This document shows positions 7,131 to 64,000 of a DNA stretch of 64,000 nucleotides, one piece after another. The stretch comes from an uncultured Actinomycetota bacterium. GTDB lineage: Bacteria > Actinomycetota > Geothermincolia > Geothermincolales > RBG-13-55-18. Every line of letters begins with the position of its first letter. Position 1 is the stretch's first letter. The stretch covers positions 9,586-73,585 of the forward strand of contig CAZEAU010000010.1 of the NCBI GenBank assembly GCA_964510515.1, given 5' to 3'. The notes under the pieces are model-generated. The model was given only the letters and a program-made list of their open reading frames with translations. It did not search any database and had not been told where the DNA came from. The position numbers were made by a program, and so were the translations under genes.

Positions 7131-8374
7131 GTCTCGTCCTTCACGCTCGTCTCGGGGCCCCCGCCGCCGGCGAGCGCCTCCCGCAGCGCCTCCAGCAGCC
7201 CATCCACCTCCCGGGTGGATACGGAGAGCGGGGGCAGGAAGCGCAGCACGGCCTCCCCGATGCTGTTGACCACGTACCCCTTGCGCAGACAGGAGAGCAC
7301 GATCTCCCTGGCACGCTCCTGCTTCAGCTCCACGGCCAGCAAAAGGCCCATGCCCCTCACCTCGTCCACGGCACCGCTCTCCTCCCCGAGCCCCTCCAGG
7401 CTCTCCCGGAAATATGCGCCCACCCGCGCCGCGTTCTCGATCAGCTTCTCGTCGCGCAGAACCGCCATCACCGCCAGGGCCGCCGCGCATGCCACCGGGT
7501 TCCCTCCGAAGGTGCTGCCGTGGTCCCCGGGCGAGAACCCCCGGGAGGCCTCCGCGCTCGCCAGCACCGCCCCGATGGGCAGTCCCCCCGCCAGCCCCTT
7601 GGCCACCGTCATCACGTCCGGGGTCACGCCGTAATGCTCGTGCGCGAAGAGGGCTCCCGTGCGCCCCATGCCCGTCTGCACCTCGTCCAGGATGAGCAGG
7701 GCTCCCTTCCTGCGGCAGATCTCGGCCGCACCCCTCAGGTATGCCGCCTCGCTCACGTAAACGCCCCCCTCGCCCTGTATGGGCTCGAGCAGGACGCAGC
7801 AGGTGCTCTCGTCCACCGCTTCCTCCAGGGCGTCCAGGTCGTTCAGGGGGACGTGCGCGAACCCGGGGGGCAGGGGGGAGAAAGGCTGCGTCTTGCCCGC
7901 CTGTCCGGTCGCCGCCAGCGCGGCGTAGGTGCGCCCGTGAAACGACTTCAGGGCCGAGACCACCTTGTGCCTGTCCTCGCGCCGCACCTCGCGCATGTAC
8001 TTGCGCGCCAGTTTGATCGCCGCCTCGTTGGCCTCGGTGCCGCTGTTGCAGAAAAAGACTCTGTCCGCGAAGGTGCATGCGCACAGCATCTCCGCCAGCT
8101 CGCCCTGCGGGCGCGTATAGTACAGGTTGCTGACGTGGATAAGCTGAGAGACCTGACGCGCCACCGCGGCGATGACCTCCGCGTGACAGTGCCCGGCCAC
8201 GCAGGCGCCGAGGCCGGATACGAAGTCTACGTACTCCTTGCCCGCATCGTCCCAGAGGCGCGTGCCGTGCCCGCGCACGAAGAGCACCGGCAGGCGGCTG
8301 TAATTGTGCATGAGAAAGGCCGCTTCCTGGCTGCGGGCCTTATCCAGATCATATTCCTTCACTGCGTCCTCCAT
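7118..8374 (-). CDS. argD: acetylornithine aminotransferase
   Basis: Class III PLP aminotransferase, 418 aa (LWDDAGKEYVDFVSGLGACVAGHCHAEV...). Overlaps the argF start by 13 nt. Confidence 0.9.
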   Translation of the reverse strand: MEDAVKEYDLDKARSQEAAFLMHNYSRLPVLFVRGHGTRLWDDAGKEYVDFVSGLGACVAGHCHAEVIAAVARQVSQLIHVSNLYYTRPQGELAEMLCACTFADRVFFCNSGTEANEAAIKLARKYMREVRREDRHKVVSALKSFHGRTYAALAATGQAGKTQPFSPLPPGFAHVPLNDLDALEEAVDESTCCVLLEPIQGEGGVYVSEAAYLRGAAEICRRKGALLILDEVQTGMGRTGALFAHEHYGVTPDVMTVAKGLAGGLPIGAVLASAEASRGFSPGDHGSTFGGNPVACAAALAVMAVLRDEKLIENAARVGAYFRESLEGLGEESGAVDEVRGMGLLLAVELKQERAREIVLSCLRKGYVVNSIGEAVLRFLPPLSVSTREVDGLLEALREALAGGGGPETSVKDETWRA

Positions 8375-30387: not shown

Positions 30388-31110
30388 ATGGGTCTCTTCG
30401 ATCAGCCCCTGGCAGAGATCAGGGCCCGCATAGAGGGCTGGTACCGCGATGGGACGGCGAGGGAACTGCCCTTCACCCCGGTGCTGCCCCACGCGGGTGA
30501 TGCCCAGGTCATATTGAGCGAGGATACCGGCCTGGAGTTGGGGAACCCGGGCACGGCCTCGCGCTCACTGCTGCTTTGGGATGCGGAGGAAACCCTGCAT
30601 GACGGGCGCATCACCCTGGTGGGGCCCGATTTCACGCAGGCTCCCTCCTCCAGCCTGCCCTTCGCACAGGTGATCATAGTGAGCGGGGATTTCAGCGACG
30701 AGTACGACTGCTACCGCGACCTGCGTGATGCCATCTACAACGTGCGGCTGCGGGGCTTCATGACCCGCGTCTTTCCGGGGCGGCAGTCCATATGGTGCCG
30801 CATAAGCAGGGAGGCGCTGGCCGGCGGCTTCAGCGCTCAGCTCCTGGGCAGCGCCCTCATGCAGTCCCTCAAGGGACTCGACTTCGTGCGCGGCGTCGAG
30901 GTGCTCTTCGTCACCGCGGGCAAGGAAGAGGTGGACGGGCTCGCGAGCGCGGCGGACAAGGTCATGGACATCGTCGAAGCCCTGATCAAGATGTACGAGG
31001 AGATGAACTTCGACTGCGAGGAGTGCGAATACGTGGAAGTCTGTGACGAGGTGGTGGAATTGAGGCGTATACGCGAAAAGCTCCAGGCGAAGCGGGAAGG
31101 CGGCGGCTGA
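30388..31110 (+). CDS. hypothetical protein with C-terminal CxxCx5C motif, translationally coupled to the CooC-like ATPase
   Basis: 240 aa, no recognised family. C-terminus ...MNFDCEECEYVEVCDEVVEL. The stop lies 3 nt before the next start. Confidence 0.5.
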   Translation: MGLFDQPLAEIRARIEGWYRDGTARELPFTPVLPHAGDAQVILSEDTGLELGNPGTASRSLLLWDAEETLHDGRITLVGPDFTQAPSSSLPFAQVIIVSGDFSDEYDCYRDLRDAIYNVRLRGFMTRVFPGRQSIWCRISREALAGGFSAQLLGSALMQSLKGLDFVRGVEVLFVTAGKEEVDGLASAADKVMDIVEALIKMYEEMNFDCEECEYVEVCDEVVELRRIREKLQAKREGGG

Positions 31111-31113
31111 GCC

Positions 31114-31890
31114 ATGTCCGACGGGGATCGCGGCGGCGCGGGCAAGGTCATCGCCGTATGCGGCAAGGGCGGGGTCGGCAAGACGACCGTCTCCGCGCTG
31201 CTATCGCGCCTCCTGCGCGAGGAGCGGACCTCCCGGGCGCTGGTGGTCGACGCCGACCCGGCCATAGGGCTTGGTTTGGCCCTGAACCGTTTTCCCGAGC
31301 GCACGGTCAACGACGTCCGCAAGGAGATCATCACCGCGGTACGCGAGCGCTCCACCGACAGCCTGGACCTCGCCGCCTCCGTCGATTACAAGATGATGGA
31401 GATAGTCATGGACAGCGGGAACCTCGGCTTCCTCTCCGTGGGACGCCCCGAGGAGGAGGGTTGTTACTGCCAGCTCAACACCCTGCTCAGGGAGGCCATA
31501 GAGACCCTCTCCTCCCACTTCGACATCACCCTTATCGACGCGGAAGCCGGGGTGGAACAGGTGAACCGCCGCGTCATGCGCTCGGTTTCCCACCTGCTGC
31601 TGGTCAGCGATACCACCGTGAAAGCGCTGCGCGTCGCCGAGTCCATCGCCAAGGTGGCCGACGAGGCGGTCGATTACAGGCGTATCGGGCTCATCGTCAA
31701 CCGCGCCCGCGGCGGGGATGAGGCACGGCGCCTCGCCGCACAGGGGGAGCTGCCCTTGCTGGGCTGGATCCCGGAAGACGATACGGTGAGGGAATACGAC
31801 TCCGAGGCCCGGGGCTTTCTGGACATTCCCGCCTGCCCCGCCCTGGAAGCGGTGAGGGCGCAGATTCTCGAGGGCGGTTTCCTCTCCTAG
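31114..31890 (+). CDS. CooC/AcsF-type MinD-family P-loop ATPase (deviant Walker A, CxC metal motif)
   Basis: VIAVCGKGGVGKTT deviant Walker A and a conserved GCYC motif as in CO-dehydrogenase nickel-insertion ATPase CooC. 258 aa. Confidence 0.7.
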   Translation: MSDGDRGGAGKVIAVCGKGGVGKTTVSALLSRLLREERTSRALVVDADPAIGLGLALNRFPERTVNDVRKEIITAVRERSTDSLDLAASVDYKMMEIVMDSGNLGFLSVGRPEEEGCYCQLNTLLREAIETLSSHFDITLIDAEAGVEQVNRRVMRSVSHLLLVSDTTVKALRVAESIAKVADEAVDYRRIGLIVNRARGGDEARRLAAQGELPLLGWIPEDDTVREYDSEARGFLDIPACPALEAVRAQILEGGFLS

Positions 31891-34044: not shown

Positions 34045-34527
34045 CTAGAGGACGCCGCCGATCCTCCCGATCTGGATGTGCACCTCTCCGTCCTCGTCGC
34101 TCACGGTCACGGTGACGATGGAGCCGTCGTCCATCTCCTTCATCCAGGTGGCCTCCCTGGCGGTCTCTTCCACGATGAGCGGGTCTCCCATCTTGCCATT
34201 GTAGAAGTCGACCACCTTGTCGAAGCCGTGCGTGGTGATAAACACCGCTCCCGCGGTCGTGAACTCGCCCTCGGGGCCGCTTCCCGACACCATGGCTCCG
34301 CTTCCCGGCACGAGTTCGGCGCCGGGGTAGATCGGGGCTCCCAGCTCTTTCTCGCTGGGGACCTTTTCGGAGTAATTGTAGCTGACGTCACCCTCCTCGG
34401 TCTTGTAGGTGACGGTGCCGCCGTCTTCCTCCACCTTCACCTCGCCAAGCGGGGTCTCAACCGTCTCTTTGTCGCCGCACCCGGCGCTCACGGCCAGGGC
34501 GAACGCCATGCTCAGCAGCAGCATCAT
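34045..34527 (-). CDS. hypothetical lipoprotein
   Basis: Signal peptide plus lipobox MMLLLSMAFALAVSAGC, then an acidic Thr/Glu-rich mature region. No family recognised. Confidence 0.45.
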   Translation of the reverse strand: MMLLLSMAFALAVSAGCGDKETVETPLGEVKVEEDGGTVTYKTEEGDVSYNYSEKVPSEKELGAPIYPGAELVPGSGAMVSGSGPEGEFTTAGAVFITTHGFDKVVDFYNGKMGDPLIVEETAREATWMKEMDDGSIVTVTVSDEDGEVHIQIGRIGGVL

Positions 34528-34621
34528 GACCAGTGCTTTCCTCAACTCTCTCCCTCCCTTCCTCGTTCCGGCTGCGTCTTGCGGGTCCATCCCGCACACA
34601 ACTTTCTCCCGTTACGCGATT

Positions 34622-34896
34622 ATTATACCCACGCGTGCGAGGTTGCAGCAGCCAAGCCCGCTCCCCCTGCTTCAGCTCCGCTATTATGCCCGCGCGTGCG
34701 GGGATGCAGCGCGGAGGAGCTCTTCGAGTGAGAGGCCCTGATGCCTTTATACCCACGCGTGCGGGGGTACAGCGTCGACCAGGCCCCAGAATGGCGGCCC
34801 TGGTGAATTATACCCACGCGGGCGGGGGTGCAGCTACGCGCAGGCAGTCTTGGATGCGAGGCAGGATATTATGCCCGCGCGGGCGGGGGTGCAGCG
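34622..34896 (+). CRISPR. orphan, degenerate type I-E-like CRISPR array (5 repeats of 28-29 nt, 4 spacers of 32-35 nt, period 61-63)
   Basis: Repeats at 34622, 34683, 34746, 34807 and 34868 follow ATTAT(A/G)CCC(A/G)CGCG(T/G)GCGGGG(A/G)T(G/A)CAGC. The consensus resembles the I-E repeat CCCCACGCGTGTGGGGATGGACCG. The leftmost copy is most degenerate. There are no cas genes in the window. Confidence 0.7.
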
Positions 34897-35052
34897 GTCC
34901 GGGAGCGCCGCTTCCACGCTTCCGGGCGCTCTTTCGCTTCCTTCAGGCCCAACCTCACGATTGAGCCCTTGCGCTTCGCCGCTCCCTCGCCTCCGCCGGG
35001 TTGGACAGGGGATTCTCACCCCCGGGCCGCCCGGCATGCCCGGCACGGCAAG

Positions 35053-35077
35053 AAAAAAACAGGGCCTTGCGGCCCTG
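35053..35077 (-). terminator. Rho-independent terminator downstream of tRNA-Ala
   Basis: Minus strand reads CAGGGCCGCAAGGCCCTG followed by TTTTTTT. Confidence 0.6.
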
Positions 35078-35084
35078 TTTATAT

Positions 35085-35161
35085 TGGTGGAGCCGATGGG
35101 ACTCGAACCCACGACCTCTACCATGCCAAGGTAGCGCTCTCCCAAGCTGAGCTACGGCCCC
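35085..35161 (-). tRNA. tRNA-Ala (anticodon GGC), CCA encoded
   Basis: The reverse complement GGGGCCGTAGCTCAGCTTGGGAGAGCGCTACCTTGGCATGGTAGAGGTCGTGGGTTCGAGTCCCATCGGCTCCACCA folds as a cloverleaf. G3:U70 identity pair; anticodon loop TTGGCAT. Confidence 0.9.
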
Positions 35162-42408: not shown

Positions 42409-44247
42409 CTATCTCACGCAGCCCTCCGCGAAGTACCAGTCGACGGCGGGCTGGTTAGACCCGATGGCATTGTTGCCGTCGCTTATGCCGCGGAAGTTGA
42501 AATACTGGGCCAGCTCGACCACGATGGGGGAGGAGGAAACGACCTTCGTGCTCACCTCGGTATCCTGCAGCTGCGGGATGTCGTTGACGTGCACGGTGTA
42601 GCGGGAATGGGGCCTCATCTCCACCTTGCGGCCGACCGTCACCCCGTCCGAGCGCATGAAGAGGATGTCCACGCTGGCGACCTCGTCGCCGGGGTTGAGG
42701 AAGAGCACGTATTCGTCGAACTCCCCCCCCGTATAGCCCTCGGCCAGGTACCACTGCCGATTGGGCTCCGGGGCGCCTATGCTGGCATGTCCCCCCTTGC
42801 GGCCCTGGTAGTCGAAGTACATGGAGCGCTCCGCGACGATGGGAAGGTCGGAGTCGACGCGCACGGATACCTCCGTCGCCTCCAGGCCCGGCAGCGTGTC
42901 CACGTGCACGCTGTGGCGCCTGCGCCCGGGCACGCTCACCTGGTGGGAGCTTATCGCGCCGTCCGGCTTCATGAAGCTCAGGGTGACCGTGGCCGTGCCG
43001 TCGTTGGGGTTCTGCAGAAGCACCCAGGTGTCGAAGGACTCCCCGGTGTAGCCCTCGGCGAAGAACCACGTATTCGAGGTGGAGCTGGCGCCGATGGAGC
43101 CGTGCCCCCCGTCCTTGCCGCCGTAATTGAAGTACATCGCCCGCTCCGCCACCACGGGGATATCGCTGAAGACCTGGGTGGAGACATCGCAGGCTTCGAG
43201 GCCCGGCACCTCGTCCACGTGCACGCTGTGGCGAGAGCGCGGCGGGATGCTCGCCTGCCTGGTGATCACCCCCCCGTCCGCACGCATGAAGCTCAGGGTG
43301 ACGTTGGCGGTGGCATGATTGGGGTTCTGCAGAAGCACCCAGGTGTCGAAGGAGGCCCCGGTGTAGCCCTCGGCGAAGAACCACGTCTTGGAGGGCGCGT
43401 CGGTGCCGATGGAATCGGAACCGCCCTTGCGGCCTTTATACCTGAAGTACATGGCGCGCTCGGCCAGTACCGGGGTATCGCTTCTGACGTGGGCCGAGAA
43501 GGATCCGCAGCCCACGGTCTCTCGCACCGGCACCGTGAAGCGGCTGTTGGCGCCCACGCTGTAGGCGAAGCTCCGGCTCGAGCCGTCATCCCCCTGAAAG
43601 GTCACCTCGACCTGCGCCTCCCGCTCGCTCGGGTTCATGACCAGGAGATAGGCGTCGAAGCTGTCGCAGGCGGGCGCCGGGGGCGGAGCCGCGGCCGGGG
43701 CCGCGGCGGGGACGGGCGCGCGGTCCGCGCTGGCGGGGAGGGAGGAGAAGGCCATGAACTCCTGCGTCACGTACAGGGTGTTGCCGCCCTTGATCACCCC
43801 TATCCCGATGCAGTTGAACTCGCGCCGCAGGATGTTAGCCCGGTGCGAGGGGCTGTTCATGAGCGCATTGAAGGCCACCTCTACGCTGGGGGCCTTGGCG
43901 ATGTTCTCGCCGGCGAGGTTCCAACCCGTGATGCCGCGTGCCGAGATGCGCTGCTGCAGGGTCCCCGACACGGGGGAGACGTGAGCAAAGAACTTGTGCT
44001 CATACATCTCGTTGCAGTAGTCGCGTGCCATGTCCGTGAGCCGCTGCTCCGCGCTCAGGAGGGGCAGCCCCGCCCCGTTGCGGGCCTGGTTCACAAGCTG
44101 CAGCATGCAGGCCTCCTCGGCCGAGGCGTTCACCGCTGCCTGCGCCGTGCCCCCGGCCATCGGCAAAGGGTGCATGAGGGCCAGGGCGAGGACGGTCACG
44201 GTCAAGACCGCCGCCGCATCTTTCTGCCACCGAGCGAGTCCTCTCAT
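42409..44247 (-). CDS. secreted CAP/SCP (YkwD-like) domain protein followed by four ~110-aa tandem repeats of an uncharacterised domain
   Basis: Sec signal MRGLARWQKDAAAVLTVTVLALALMHPLPMAGGTAQA. CAP domain (LQLVNQARNGAGLPLL...FFAHVSPVSG...GENIAKAP...SPSHRANIL...YVTQEF). Four repeats with the conserved pattern VLAERAMYF-Y-G-KGG--SIG-----WFFAEGYTG-SFDTWVLLQNPN...RHSVHVD--PGLEA-EVS; the last is truncated. Confidence 0.7.
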   Translation of the reverse strand: MRGLARWQKDAAAVLTVTVLALALMHPLPMAGGTAQAAVNASAEEACMLQLVNQARNGAGLPLLSAEQRLTDMARDYCNEMYEHKFFAHVSPVSGTLQQRISARGITGWNLAGENIAKAPSVEVAFNALMNSPSHRANILRREFNCIGIGVIKGGNTLYVTQEFMAFSSLPASADRAPVPAAAPAAAPPPAPACDSFDAYLLVMNPSEREAQVEVTFQGDDGSSRSFAYSVGANSRFTVPVRETVGCGSFSAHVRSDTPVLAERAMYFRYKGRKGGSDSIGTDAPSKTWFFAEGYTGASFDTWVLLQNPNHATANVTLSFMRADGGVITRQASIPPRSRHSVHVDEVPGLEACDVSTQVFSDIPVVAERAMYFNYGGKDGGHGSIGASSTSNTWFFAEGYTGESFDTWVLLQNPNDGTATVTLSFMKPDGAISSHQVSVPGRRRHSVHVDTLPGLEATEVSVRVDSDLPIVAERSMYFDYQGRKGGHASIGAPEPNRQWYLAEGYTGGEFDEYVLFLNPGDEVASVDILFMRSDGVTVGRKVEMRPHSRYTVHVNDIPQLQDTEVSTKVVSSSPIVVELAQYFNFRGISDGNNAIGSNQPAVDWYFAEGCVR

Positions 44248-44319
44248 CTTGTCTCCCCCCTCTTGTCCCCGAGGTCTGGCGGCAAGCCCTCCGCATCGTC
44301 CGCCCGCTTCGTGTGCCTG

Positions 44320-44355
44320 AAAACAAAACGCCCTTTCCACCGCGGTGGAAAGGGC
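44320..44355 (-). terminator. Rho-independent terminator / leader hairpin ~85 nt upstream of the CAP-repeat gene start
   Basis: Perfect 12-bp inverted repeat GCCCTTTCCACC-GC-GGTGGAAAGGGC followed on the minus strand by GTTTTGTTTT. Confidence 0.5.
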
Positions 44356-44740
44356 GTCGCTTTCGGCGGCAGCCTGGCTGTCCTAGCCGCTTACGCGACC
44401 TTAGACCCATGGCTTTGCGCCCTCTCCTTTCGGAAGAGTTTGCCTTTATCACCTGAGGTATATTTGATTCTCAAGGTCTGCATATCCTATCGACATCCGG
44501 CGGGCGATGCTTGAGCCCTTCCCCACCCCCCGGCCTTGGCGCGGGACTCGCGGCGCAAAAGCCTAAAGTCAAGGGGGATGGATGCCGATAGTTAAATTGC
44601 CAAAAATCTACGCCGAACGAGTTTTGGTCATGGCCGGGAAGCCTGCCCGCTTCCCGGTCTCCCTTCTGTGGAAGTCTTCGCCCCGCGCGGGCGGCAGCAT
44701 TCGCGCGCGCTCCCATCCCCGCCCGCTGACCGCCGGCGCA

Positions 44741-63040: not shown

Positions 63041-64000
63041 TGCGCCACCACCTTGTCCCCGGTGTTCACCTTCTCCAGGCTGGGGACCACCTGGAGCTGC
63101 TGCAGGGAAAACTCCATCACCTGGGAAAAACACGGTGCCGCGGCGAGCCCCCCGTACATGGTGTCCGGCTCGTCCAGGGCGATAACGCATACCAGGCGCG
63201 GGTTCTCCAGCGGCGCCAGGCCCGCGAAGGTGGCCACGTAAGCCTCGCGGTATCCGCCCGCGGGATCCGGTTTCATGGCCGTCCCCGTCTTGCCGCCGCA
63301 ATTATATAGAGTCATGGCGGCGCGCGTTCCCGTGCCCACCCTCACCGCTTCCCCCAGGATGTGGCGCAGGGATGCCGCCCCGTTCGCGGAGATGATCGGC
63401 TCTCTCTCCGCGACCTCCACCTCCTCCGCCCGGTTGCCCGCATGCAGTCTGCGCAGCAGGAAATGGGGCTGGACCGTGCTCCCGCCGTTGCCCACCGCGG
63501 CGGTGAGCACGGCGATCTGCAGGGGGGTCACCGAGATCCCCTGCCCGATGGCGATGGTCGGAAGGGAGGTGAGGGACCACTCCTCCAGGTCCAGCACCAG
63601 GCCCGCGCTCTCGCCGGGGAAATCCACTCCCGTCAACTCGCCCAGCCCGCTGAGGGCGATGTACTCGCTCAGGGCCTCCTCGCCCAGGGCCTGGGCGGTC
63701 TTGATGGTGCCGATGTTGGAGGAGTAGGCGATGACCTCGGCAAAGGTGAGGTCGCACTTCTCCATGGGGTGGTCGTCGGTGAACTCGTAGTCCGCGACCT
63801 GCAGGCTCCGGGGCACGTTGATCACCGACCCCGGGGTCACCACCTTCTCCTGCAGGGCGGCCATGGCGGTGAGTATCTTGAGCACCGACCCGGGCTCGAA
63901 GGCGTCGGTGATGGGCTGGGCCCGGGTGACCCCCGCGGGGACCTCGGGGAAGAGGTTGAGGTCGAAGTCCGGTATCACCGCCATGGCCAGTATCTCGCCG
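63037..64000 (-). CDS. ftsI: penicillin-binding protein (FtsI/PBP2B-class transpeptidase), C-terminal part; gene continues beyond window end
   Basis: Transpeptidase motifs SxxK region (FEPGSVLKILT), SSN (AYSSNIG) and KTGT (GGKTGTA). The head of the dcw cluster. Confidence 0.85.
   Translation of the reverse strand, partial: GEILAMAVIPDFDLNLFPEVPAGVTRAQPITDAFEPGSVLKILTAMAALQEKVVTPGSVINVPRSLQVADYEFTDDHPMEKCDLTFAEVIAYSSNIGTIKTAQALGEEALSEYIALSGLGELTGVDFPGESAGLVLDLEEWSLTSLPTIAIGQGISVTPLQIAVLTAAVGNGGSTVQPHFLLRRLHAGNRAEEVEVAEREPIISANGAASLRHILGEAVRVGTGTRAAMTLYNCGGKTGTAMKPDPAGGYREAYVATFAGLAPLENPRLVCVIALDEPDTMYGGLAAAPCFSQVMEFSLQQLQVVPSLEKVNTGDKVVAQ

Follow-up and report, generated by a model that had tools for sequence, protein, structure and literature searches.

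Isolated CRISPR arrays are frequent and tend to be set aside as debris; as a CRISPR relic, the array described here would be an ordinary one. It is noteworthy because its repeat and a conserved element, putatively part of the promoter of the neighbouring gene, occupy the same six bases. The overlap prompts one to ask if a working promoter can be copied by CRISPR adaptation, or if adaptation can be tolerated on top of it. It also offers a way to ask how an isolated array originates, i.e. by off-target integration (which, into native DNA, has to date been demonstrated mostly in engineered E. coli) or by the loss of a once complete locus. The array was analysed within a 64-kb stretch of DNA (G+C content 68%) from an uncultured Actinomycetota bacterium; this whole stretch is referred to as the window and all positions are those of the window unless a contig is named.

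Anatomy and surroundings of the array

The array (34622–34896) consists of five 29-nt direct repeats with start-to-start distances of 61, 63, 61 and 61 nt, interrupted by four unique spacers of 32, 34, 32 and 32 nt. It thereby bears out the initial annotation, which had described five repeats of 61–63-nt periodicity with four unique spacers between a lipoprotein gene and a tRNA-Ala gene. The arrangement fits the pattern by which CRISPR arrays are recognized, three or more direct repeats of 23–50 nt set at regular intervals by unique spacers that are similarly long. The features of the region are given below; haplotypes A and B are the two array versions compared further on.

34045–34545, minus strand: lipoprotein gene (166 aa, TTG start at 34545, signal peptide, lipobox ...AVSAGC)
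34546–34621, minus strand: 5' UTR of the lipoprotein gene (76 nt); the sole possible CRISPR leader if the array is read on the plus strand
34622–34627, minus strand: TATAAT hexamer in R1, 76 nt upstream of the lipoprotein TTG start
34622–34650, plus strand: repeat R1, ATTATACCCACGCGTGCGAGGTTGCAGCA; adjoins the lipoprotein gene side; changes G19A, G22T and A29
34651–34682, plus strand: spacer S1 (32 nt)
34683–34711, plus strand: repeat R2, ATTATGCCCGCGCGTGCGGGGATGCAGCG; perfect 5-bp stem; the copy nearest to canonical I-E repeats (19/29)
34712–34745, plus strand: spacer S2 (34 nt); identical in haplotype B
34746–34774, plus strand: repeat R3, TTTATACCCACGCGTGCGGGGGTACAGCG; same sequence in both haplotypes
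34775–34806, plus strand: spacer S3 (32 nt); identical in haplotype B
34807–34835, plus strand: repeat R4, ATTATACCCACGCGGGCGGGGGTGCAGCT
34836–34867, plus strand: spacer S4 (32 nt); haplotype A only
34868–34896, plus strand: repeat R5, ATTATGCCCGCGCGGGCGGGGGTGCAGCG; tRNA side, probably the trailer-end repeat; A6G, A10G and T15G in both haplotypes
34897–35056, no strand assigned: GC-rich stretch between R5 and the terminator (160 nt); would be the trailer in a plus-strand reading of the array; no repeat copies
35057–35080, minus strand: intrinsic terminator of tRNA-Ala
35085–35161, minus strand: tRNA-Ala(GGC)
35207–35179, minus strand: promoter-like site upstream of tRNA-Ala

A search with the 27-nt repeat core allowing up to three mismatches returned five matches in the 64-kb window against 0.00 expected (100 shuffles). 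No further copy in the window, even a weak one, emerged from this search or from a profile of all the repeat variants, and the spacers resemble neither one another nor other window sequence. Dispersal of the repeat as a REP/MITE-like family had been named at the outset as the observation that would speak against a CRISPR array; in the window the repeat is not dispersed. A protein-coding tandem repeat was ruled out since 61 is not divisible by 3. The consensus of the repeat (ATTATACCC...) over both array versions is ATTATACCCACGCGTGCGGGGGTGCAGCG, with variable positions 1, 6, 10, 15, 19, 22, 24 and 29. The initial annotation was right that several repeats carry point changes, but the leftmost copy is not clearly the most mutated, as it had stated (two or three changes in R1, three each in R2 and R5). 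Its description of the array as directly abutting tRNA-Ala and its terminator had to be corrected, as the end of R5 lies 160 nt from the terminator stem and 188 nt from the tRNA.

Two minor features were seen in the GC-rich stretch: a sequence at 35017–35037 (CACCCCCGGGCCGCCCGGCAT) that resembles the repeat core in inverted orientation with 71% complementarity and, within 34906–34995, a 19-nt direct repeat with copies 71 nt apart (CGCCGCTTCCACGCTTCCG and CGCCGCTCCCTCGCCTCCG). The repeat profile gives no score to either, and both may be chance occurrences in GC-rich DNA.

The lipoprotein gene is preceded by the Shine–Dalgarno sequence AGGGAGGGAGAG (GGAGG); its product matched no Pfam family, and homologues were found only in uncultured Actinomycetota. 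The 76-nt candidate leader contains no predicted promoter of its own. No second copy of the tRNA 3' end, which would mark an old integrated element, is present in the window.

Some 50 open reading frames were picked by codon-position G+C and scanned against Pfam, and those without a match were also examined with PADLOC. No cas gene was found among these ~50 genes across the 64-kb window, and none lies within 30 kb of the array on either side, as the initial annotation had stated; a Csa3 match (14.8 bits) on an Fe–S protein was judged to be noise. All scanned genes that could be assigned are core genes, comprising the murE-to-ftsZ division cluster, RNase G, rplU-rpmA-obg-proB-proA-nadD, a LytR_C protein, rsfS, an arginine operon, leuS, comEC, holA and PHA synthase.

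Similarity to type I-E arrays

Read on the plus strand, the repeat unit is composed of a 6-nt flank, a 15-nt stem-loop (CCCRC-GCGK-GCGGG) and an 8-nt flank, (G/A)TGCAGCG. In type I-E systems Cas6e cuts behind a hairpin whose 3' base is 8 nt away from the end of the repeat; the hairpin of the window repeat ends in the same place, and the 8-nt 5' handle of a crRNA from this locus would be GUGCAGCG/AUGCAGCG. In-frame comparison with the I-E repeats of E. coli K-12 (GAGTTCCCCGCGCCAGCGGGGATAAACCG) and of two Streptomyces arrays (NZ_CP030864 and NZ_CP108991; CTGCTCCCCGCACGCGCGGGGATGACCCC) gave 15–19 identities out of 29 on the plus strand and 5–10 out of 29 on the minus strand. At least 17 identities are reached by a fraction of 6e-4 (E. 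coli) to 1.7e-3 (Streptomyces) of all window 29-mers and 19 identities by 2e-5 to 1e-4, so that the likeness is real yet by itself not overwhelming. A BLAST search of the array against 72,556 plasmids matched little besides the repeats of Streptomyces arrays; both of those inspected adjoin operons annotated as cas3-casA-casB-cas7e-cas5e-cas6e, and at one of the two loci cas1e-cas2e are present as well.

The base at the end of the repeat differs from one following spacer to the next: A precedes S1 in both of its versions, G precedes S2, S3 and Snew (the spacer private to haplotype B) and T precedes S4, which makes G the base for three of the five distinct spacers. This fits the rule that the last repeat base in type I-E is derived from the PAM. 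An Rfam search of the array matched no CRISPR family; this result says nothing, since no CRISPR match was obtained for a genuine Streptomyces I-E array either. Type I-C was considered since the minus strand resembles ...CGCGTGGATTGAAAC, but was rejected on the 32-nt length of the I-C repeat and its period of ~67 nt.

With the I-E arrays, the window array thus shares the 29-nt repeat, the ~32-nt spacers and the 61-nt period, a GC stem with a 4-nt loop ending 8 nt before the repeat end, and the spacer-dependent last base. The proposal in the initial annotation that the repeat core is close to the I-E family is upheld by this architecture, the hairpin position, the 15–19/29 identity and the BLAST result. 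Unlike the I-E arrays, the locus has no nearby cas genes, its 5' flank is ATTATA rather than GAGTT or CTGCT, position 6 breaks the outermost stem pair, an A·C mismatch occurs in the stem of most copies, the repeats are heterogeneous, and there is no AT-rich leader with its own promoter. The leaders of the Streptomyces arrays showed no similarity to the stretch beside R1.

The orientation of the array was judged from several features, which do not all agree. In gapped BLAST and profile alignments the Streptomyces repeat aligns better in antisense, with an identical ACGC loop, 21 matches in 26 positions and a frame shifted by 2–3 nt. The stem mutations (A10 in six copies and A19 in R1) produce mismatches in a plus-strand RNA and G·U wobbles in a minus-strand RNA, so that 38 of 45 inner-stem cells are paired on the plus strand compared with 45 of 45 on the minus strand; the three outer pairs show the opposite trend (25/27 on the plus strand, 11/27 on the minus strand). 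We somewhat favour the plus strand as the orientation of the array, on account of the frame and of a last base that is mostly G. Folding of the whole region was uninformative (z about −1.2 on both strands).

Two array versions among related strains

Exact-sequence look-ups yielded seven short metagenome contigs from the same species-level lineage. Two array haplotypes were distinguished. Haplotype A comprises the window and contigs from SRR11702764, SRR17676810, SRR17676816, SRR17676818 and DRR835046 and reads, from the lipoprotein side, R1-S1-R2-S2-R3-S3-R4-S4-R5; haplotype B was found in two ENA assemblies, one of which is contig L007, and reads R1'-Snew-R2'-S2-R3'-S3-R4'-S1*-R5'. S2 and S3 are common to both haplotypes, while S4 is private to A and Snew to B. 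S1 occupies opposite ends of the array in the two haplotypes, the version in B (S1*) carrying three substitutions and being 2 nt shorter. Both S1 and S1* stand between a repeat that ends in A and a following repeat that carries G6 and G10; the shared neighbouring repeats point to a recombination between repeats, which would account for the placement of S1 better than independent acquisition.

Both haplotypes retain exactly five repeats. The spacer content differs between these close strains and the repeats and flanks stay (93–97% identical); the lipoprotein coding sequence is 97.0% identical between haplotypes (with differences at 11 of its 167 third codon positions), and identity is 94.7% in the UTR and 93.5% in the trailer. 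Spacer turnover between strains with a 97%-identical lipoprotein gene is typical of CRISPR and of no other class of repeat. Within a haplotype, the samples are identical wherever their contigs overlap, haplotype A being represented by five independent samples and haplotype B by two, and no sample has an extra spacer at either end, such as an active array would gain at its leader end. Growth is not polarized towards a leader end: the haplotypes differ at both ends of the array and share its middle.

R1, R2 and R4 each differ between the haplotypes at two or three positions. A 116-nt block that comprises S2, R3 and S3 together with the last bases of R2 and the first of R4 (34705–34820, corresponding to L007 1003–1118) is 100% identical, the flanking UTR and trailer and the third codon positions differ by 5–6.5% and S1 differs at three of 30 positions. 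At 6% divergence, identity over 116 nt has P ~1e-3 in a test that was chosen post hoc. The block could be a recent recombination tract or could reflect selection on its spacers. As a separate observation, three independent Logan assemblies of haplotype A (L018, L019 and L022) begin 6 nt inside S2 and a fourth (L020) begins at S2; this nearly coincident break at the R3/S2 boundary may indicate co-existing variants upstream of S2 or merely low coverage.

In haplotype B a Phage_integrase-family gene (L007 1–597) adjoins a 45-nt copy of the 3' part of tRNA-Ala (L007 ~697–741), which spans the anticodon loop to CCA and corresponds to window positions 35085–35129. An integrase gene beside a partial tRNA copy identifies tRNA-Ala(GGC) as the attachment site of an integrative element in haplotype B. 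The element is absent from the window, and the array lies outside it. In more distant relatives, with lipoproteins 72% and 63% identical, other genes are found upstream and there are no repeats.

The repeats differ pairwise by 2–6 of 29 positions (mean 4.4 in haplotype A and 3.4 in haplotype B). An A·C stem mismatch on the plus strand is present in six of the nine distinct copies over both haplotypes; of the five window copies three have a stem mismatch, and R2 and R5 keep a perfect hairpin. The repeat homogeneity of I-E arrays, which copying of the first repeat maintains, is lacking in the window array; in the Streptomyces array accompanied by cas1e and cas2e (NZ_CP030864.1) 29 of 33 repeats are identical. 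The second Streptomyces array (NZ_CP108991.1 81,350–84,550), where no cas1 or cas2 is annotated between cas6e and the array, is as ragged as the window array, only 14 of its 38 repeats matching the reference exactly and many having 2–7 mismatches. The comparison of these two Streptomyces arrays gives an anecdotal link between the loss of adaptation genes and repeat decay.

Targets for the spacers were sought as the initial annotation had proposed, and none was found for any of them in phage or plasmid sequence. In IMG/VR the five distinct spacers gave no exact match of 24–30 nt, and BLAST searches against phage and plasmid collections gave no match; viruses of this uncultured lineage are probably not represented in any of these collections, so that the negative result is weak evidence. 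The window and all fetched loci, including the two I-E cas operons, contain no spacer match; a 16-nt match of S1* in argD (7316–7331) does not extend and was judged to be due to chance. The window repeat was found in no other array in JGI metagenome contigs, 185,579 species genomes or IMG/VR. A degenerate repeat pattern gave five single chance matches and no arrays in the JGI contigs, and a gapped two-repeat pattern gave one chance match over the 185,579 species genomes, a Phycisphaerales terminator.

The putative promoter in the repeat and the origin of the array

The hexamer at the start of the repeat is TATAAT when read on the minus strand. The copy in R1 is placed as a putative −10 box of the lipoprotein gene, an assignment that is based on its position and conservation. 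In the array-less relatives L008 and L010 a TATAAT is present at the matching site, 79 nt before the lipoprotein start codon. When the window, L007, L008 and L010 are aligned, ATAAT is invariant and the UTR, the Shine–Dalgarno GGAGG and the TTG start are conserved. TATAAT occurs 12 times in the window compared with 2.1 occurrences expected from base composition, several of them just upstream of gene starts (other minus-strand hexamers begin, for example, at 63306, 50766, 50747, 28413, 21095 and 18367). From this enrichment and these positions the hexamer behaves as the −10 consensus of the organism, which suggests a −10 box that is unusually consensus-like for an actinobacterium of 68% G+C. 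A sigma-70 scan called no promoter at the R1 hexamer because there is no −35 element; promoters with a −10 element alone are usual in Actinobacteria.

A perfect TATAAT is kept in R1/R1' and R4/R4', and the other copies read CATAAT, TATAAA, CATAAA or CATAAG. This looks like selection on the gene-adjacent box and drift in most other copies. The box would be ancestral and lies inside the duplicated unit, even R5 having ATTATG, so that the simplest history is growth in place from a founder repeat that contained the box; the distribution of the box suggests that the array grew on a promoter. Alternatively, the relatives may have lost an old array apart from the first bases of R1, a history that needs more events. 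By MAFFT and profile comparison, the 23 nt upstream of the L008 box are not recognizably related to the repeat. A founder or solitary repeat had been suspected there by eye (TTGCA followed by a GC-rich stretch) and was discarded, as neither MAFFT nor the repeat profile supported it.

Growth in place has a precedent in neo-CRISPR arrays, which arise by off-target Cas1–Cas2 integration (Nivala, Shipman & Church, 2018, Nat Microbiol; through 10.1101/148544 and PMC7054753). As in such arrays, the window repeat contains a native, putatively functional element (the −10 box), and in-place seeding on a genomic pseudo-repeat predicts what is seen in the array-less relatives, namely a native box at the same place. 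It differs in that the window repeat is far nearer to the canonical I-E repeat than an arbitrary genomic sequence would be, and the founder sequence is not recognizable in L008 beyond the −10 box. It is possible, though we hold it only tentatively, that a I-E Cas1–Cas2 integrated ectopically at a repeat-like GC palindrome including the −10 box, giving a natural neo-CRISPR of five promoter copies of which the gene-side copy still acts as a promoter. Each acquisition would then have copied the promoter core; R1 would have been regenerated with each acquisition if the leader is on the lipoprotein side and left untouched if it is on the tRNA side. The two frozen haplotypes, one with an integrase in the adjacent tRNA-Ala, provide a small natural comparison for the promoter question.

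Another parallel is found in type II-C arrays (Neisseria and Campylobacter), in which a −10 box lies at one end of each repeat; promoters embedded in the repeats of these arrays have reportedly been described (Zhang et al., 2013, Mol Cell). The window array resembles them in having such a box, in some form, at one end of every repeat. Type II-C repeats are 36 nt long and their promoters drive crRNA synthesis, whereas the window boxes face the lipoprotein gene, away from the probable crRNA strand, and most of the copies are degenerate.

Taken as a whole, the locus is probably a vestigial orphan I-E array whose R1 overlaps the lipoprotein promoter. A I-E Cas1–Cas2 integrase would have inserted fragments of ~33 nt and duplicated the repeat each time; what is left would be an array with drifted repeats, spacers frozen in two strain-specific versions and no cas genes within 30 kb, which probably no longer confers immunity. 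Selection for the promoter would keep R1 intact, and the box copies in most other repeats would have lost key bases. The array is regarded as a relic because of the absence of cas genes from the 64 kb, the heterogeneous repeats, the stem mismatches and the frozen spacers, and of the three readings offered in the initial annotation (decay after cas loss, a remote active array and co-option) decay is accordingly the best supported, the ragged repeats and static spacers adding to the lack of cas genes in the window. The identical S2-R3-S3 block counts against neutral decay and could reflect selection on the spacers. Isolated arrays are the subject of Shmakov et al. (2020, CRISPR J), and orphan I-F CRISPR4 arrays of E. 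coli carry anti-cas spacers and have been shown to function once cas genes arrive (Almendros et al., 2016); both papers are as cited in PMC8616872. Like orphan arrays, the window array is small, far from cas genes and constant within lineages, and is plausibly what remained when cas genes were lost; the E. coli arrays as cited there have anti-cas spacers, whereas the window spacers have no target in the collections searched.

The principal rival to a vestigial array is an active one served by a distant I-E cas operon, its spacers being used for interference. Type I-E is the prevailing CRISPR type in Actinomycetota, which would suit such an array, as would the perfect hairpins of R2 and R5 and the S2-R3-S3 block, which is free of substitutions between haplotypes whose flanks differ by 5–6.5%; moreover, cas-isolated arrays are common and some are functional (PMC8616872). 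We nevertheless consider it unlikely, given the heterogeneity of the repeats with a stem mismatch in three of the five window copies, the constancy of each haplotype across independent samples, a repeat that recurs in no other array of the species genomes, JGI metagenomes and IMG/VR, spacers without a target in the collections searched, and a candidate leader that is a conserved 5' UTR on the opposite strand with no evident promoter. A domesticated regulatory region, in which the five −10 boxes act as tandem promoters or a long structured 5' region controls the lipoprotein gene and the array persists for this role, is more doubtful still. It would explain why a TATAAT-like hexamer faces the lipoprotein gene in every repeat and is perfect in R1 and R4 of both haplotypes, why the inner hairpin pairs in 45 of 45 cells on minus-strand RNA, the strand of the lipoprotein gene, and why there are exactly five repeats in both haplotypes, and the repeat-embedded promoters said to exist in type II-C would be a parallel. 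If all boxes were selected, the loss of key −10 positions in R2, R3, R5, R2', R3' and R5' would be unexpected; relatives manage with one box and no array, no more than two or three independent mutations underlie the pairing pattern on the minus strand, and the whole region folds in an ordinary way. Least probable by a wide measure is an origin outside CRISPR, by chance or as another interspersed repeat (REP/BIME, iterons or operator sites): GC-rich palindromes are common in this genome, single window 29-mers reach 18–21 identities to I-E repeats by chance and Rfam reports no CRISPR family, itself uninformative, but five copies in the same orientation with a strict 61-nt period, unique spacers of I-E length and no occurrence elsewhere in the window speak against it, as does the exchange of spacers from strain to strain with the repeats retained.

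Two further groups of genes were recorded in the window. A c-di-GMP-I riboswitch (Rfam RF01051, 78 bits) at 44365–44454 on the minus strand lies directly upstream of a gene for a secreted CAP/DUF5719 protein (643 aa, 42409–44340, minus strand) and also adjoins a sortase gene. Near the array, a CdhC-like fragment (CO dehydrogenase/acetyl-CoA synthase beta; 30388–31110, plus strand) is followed by a CooC-type ATPase gene (31114–31890, plus strand); both are kept in the relatives L008 and L010 and hint at an Actinomycetota lineage of Wood–Ljungdahl type.
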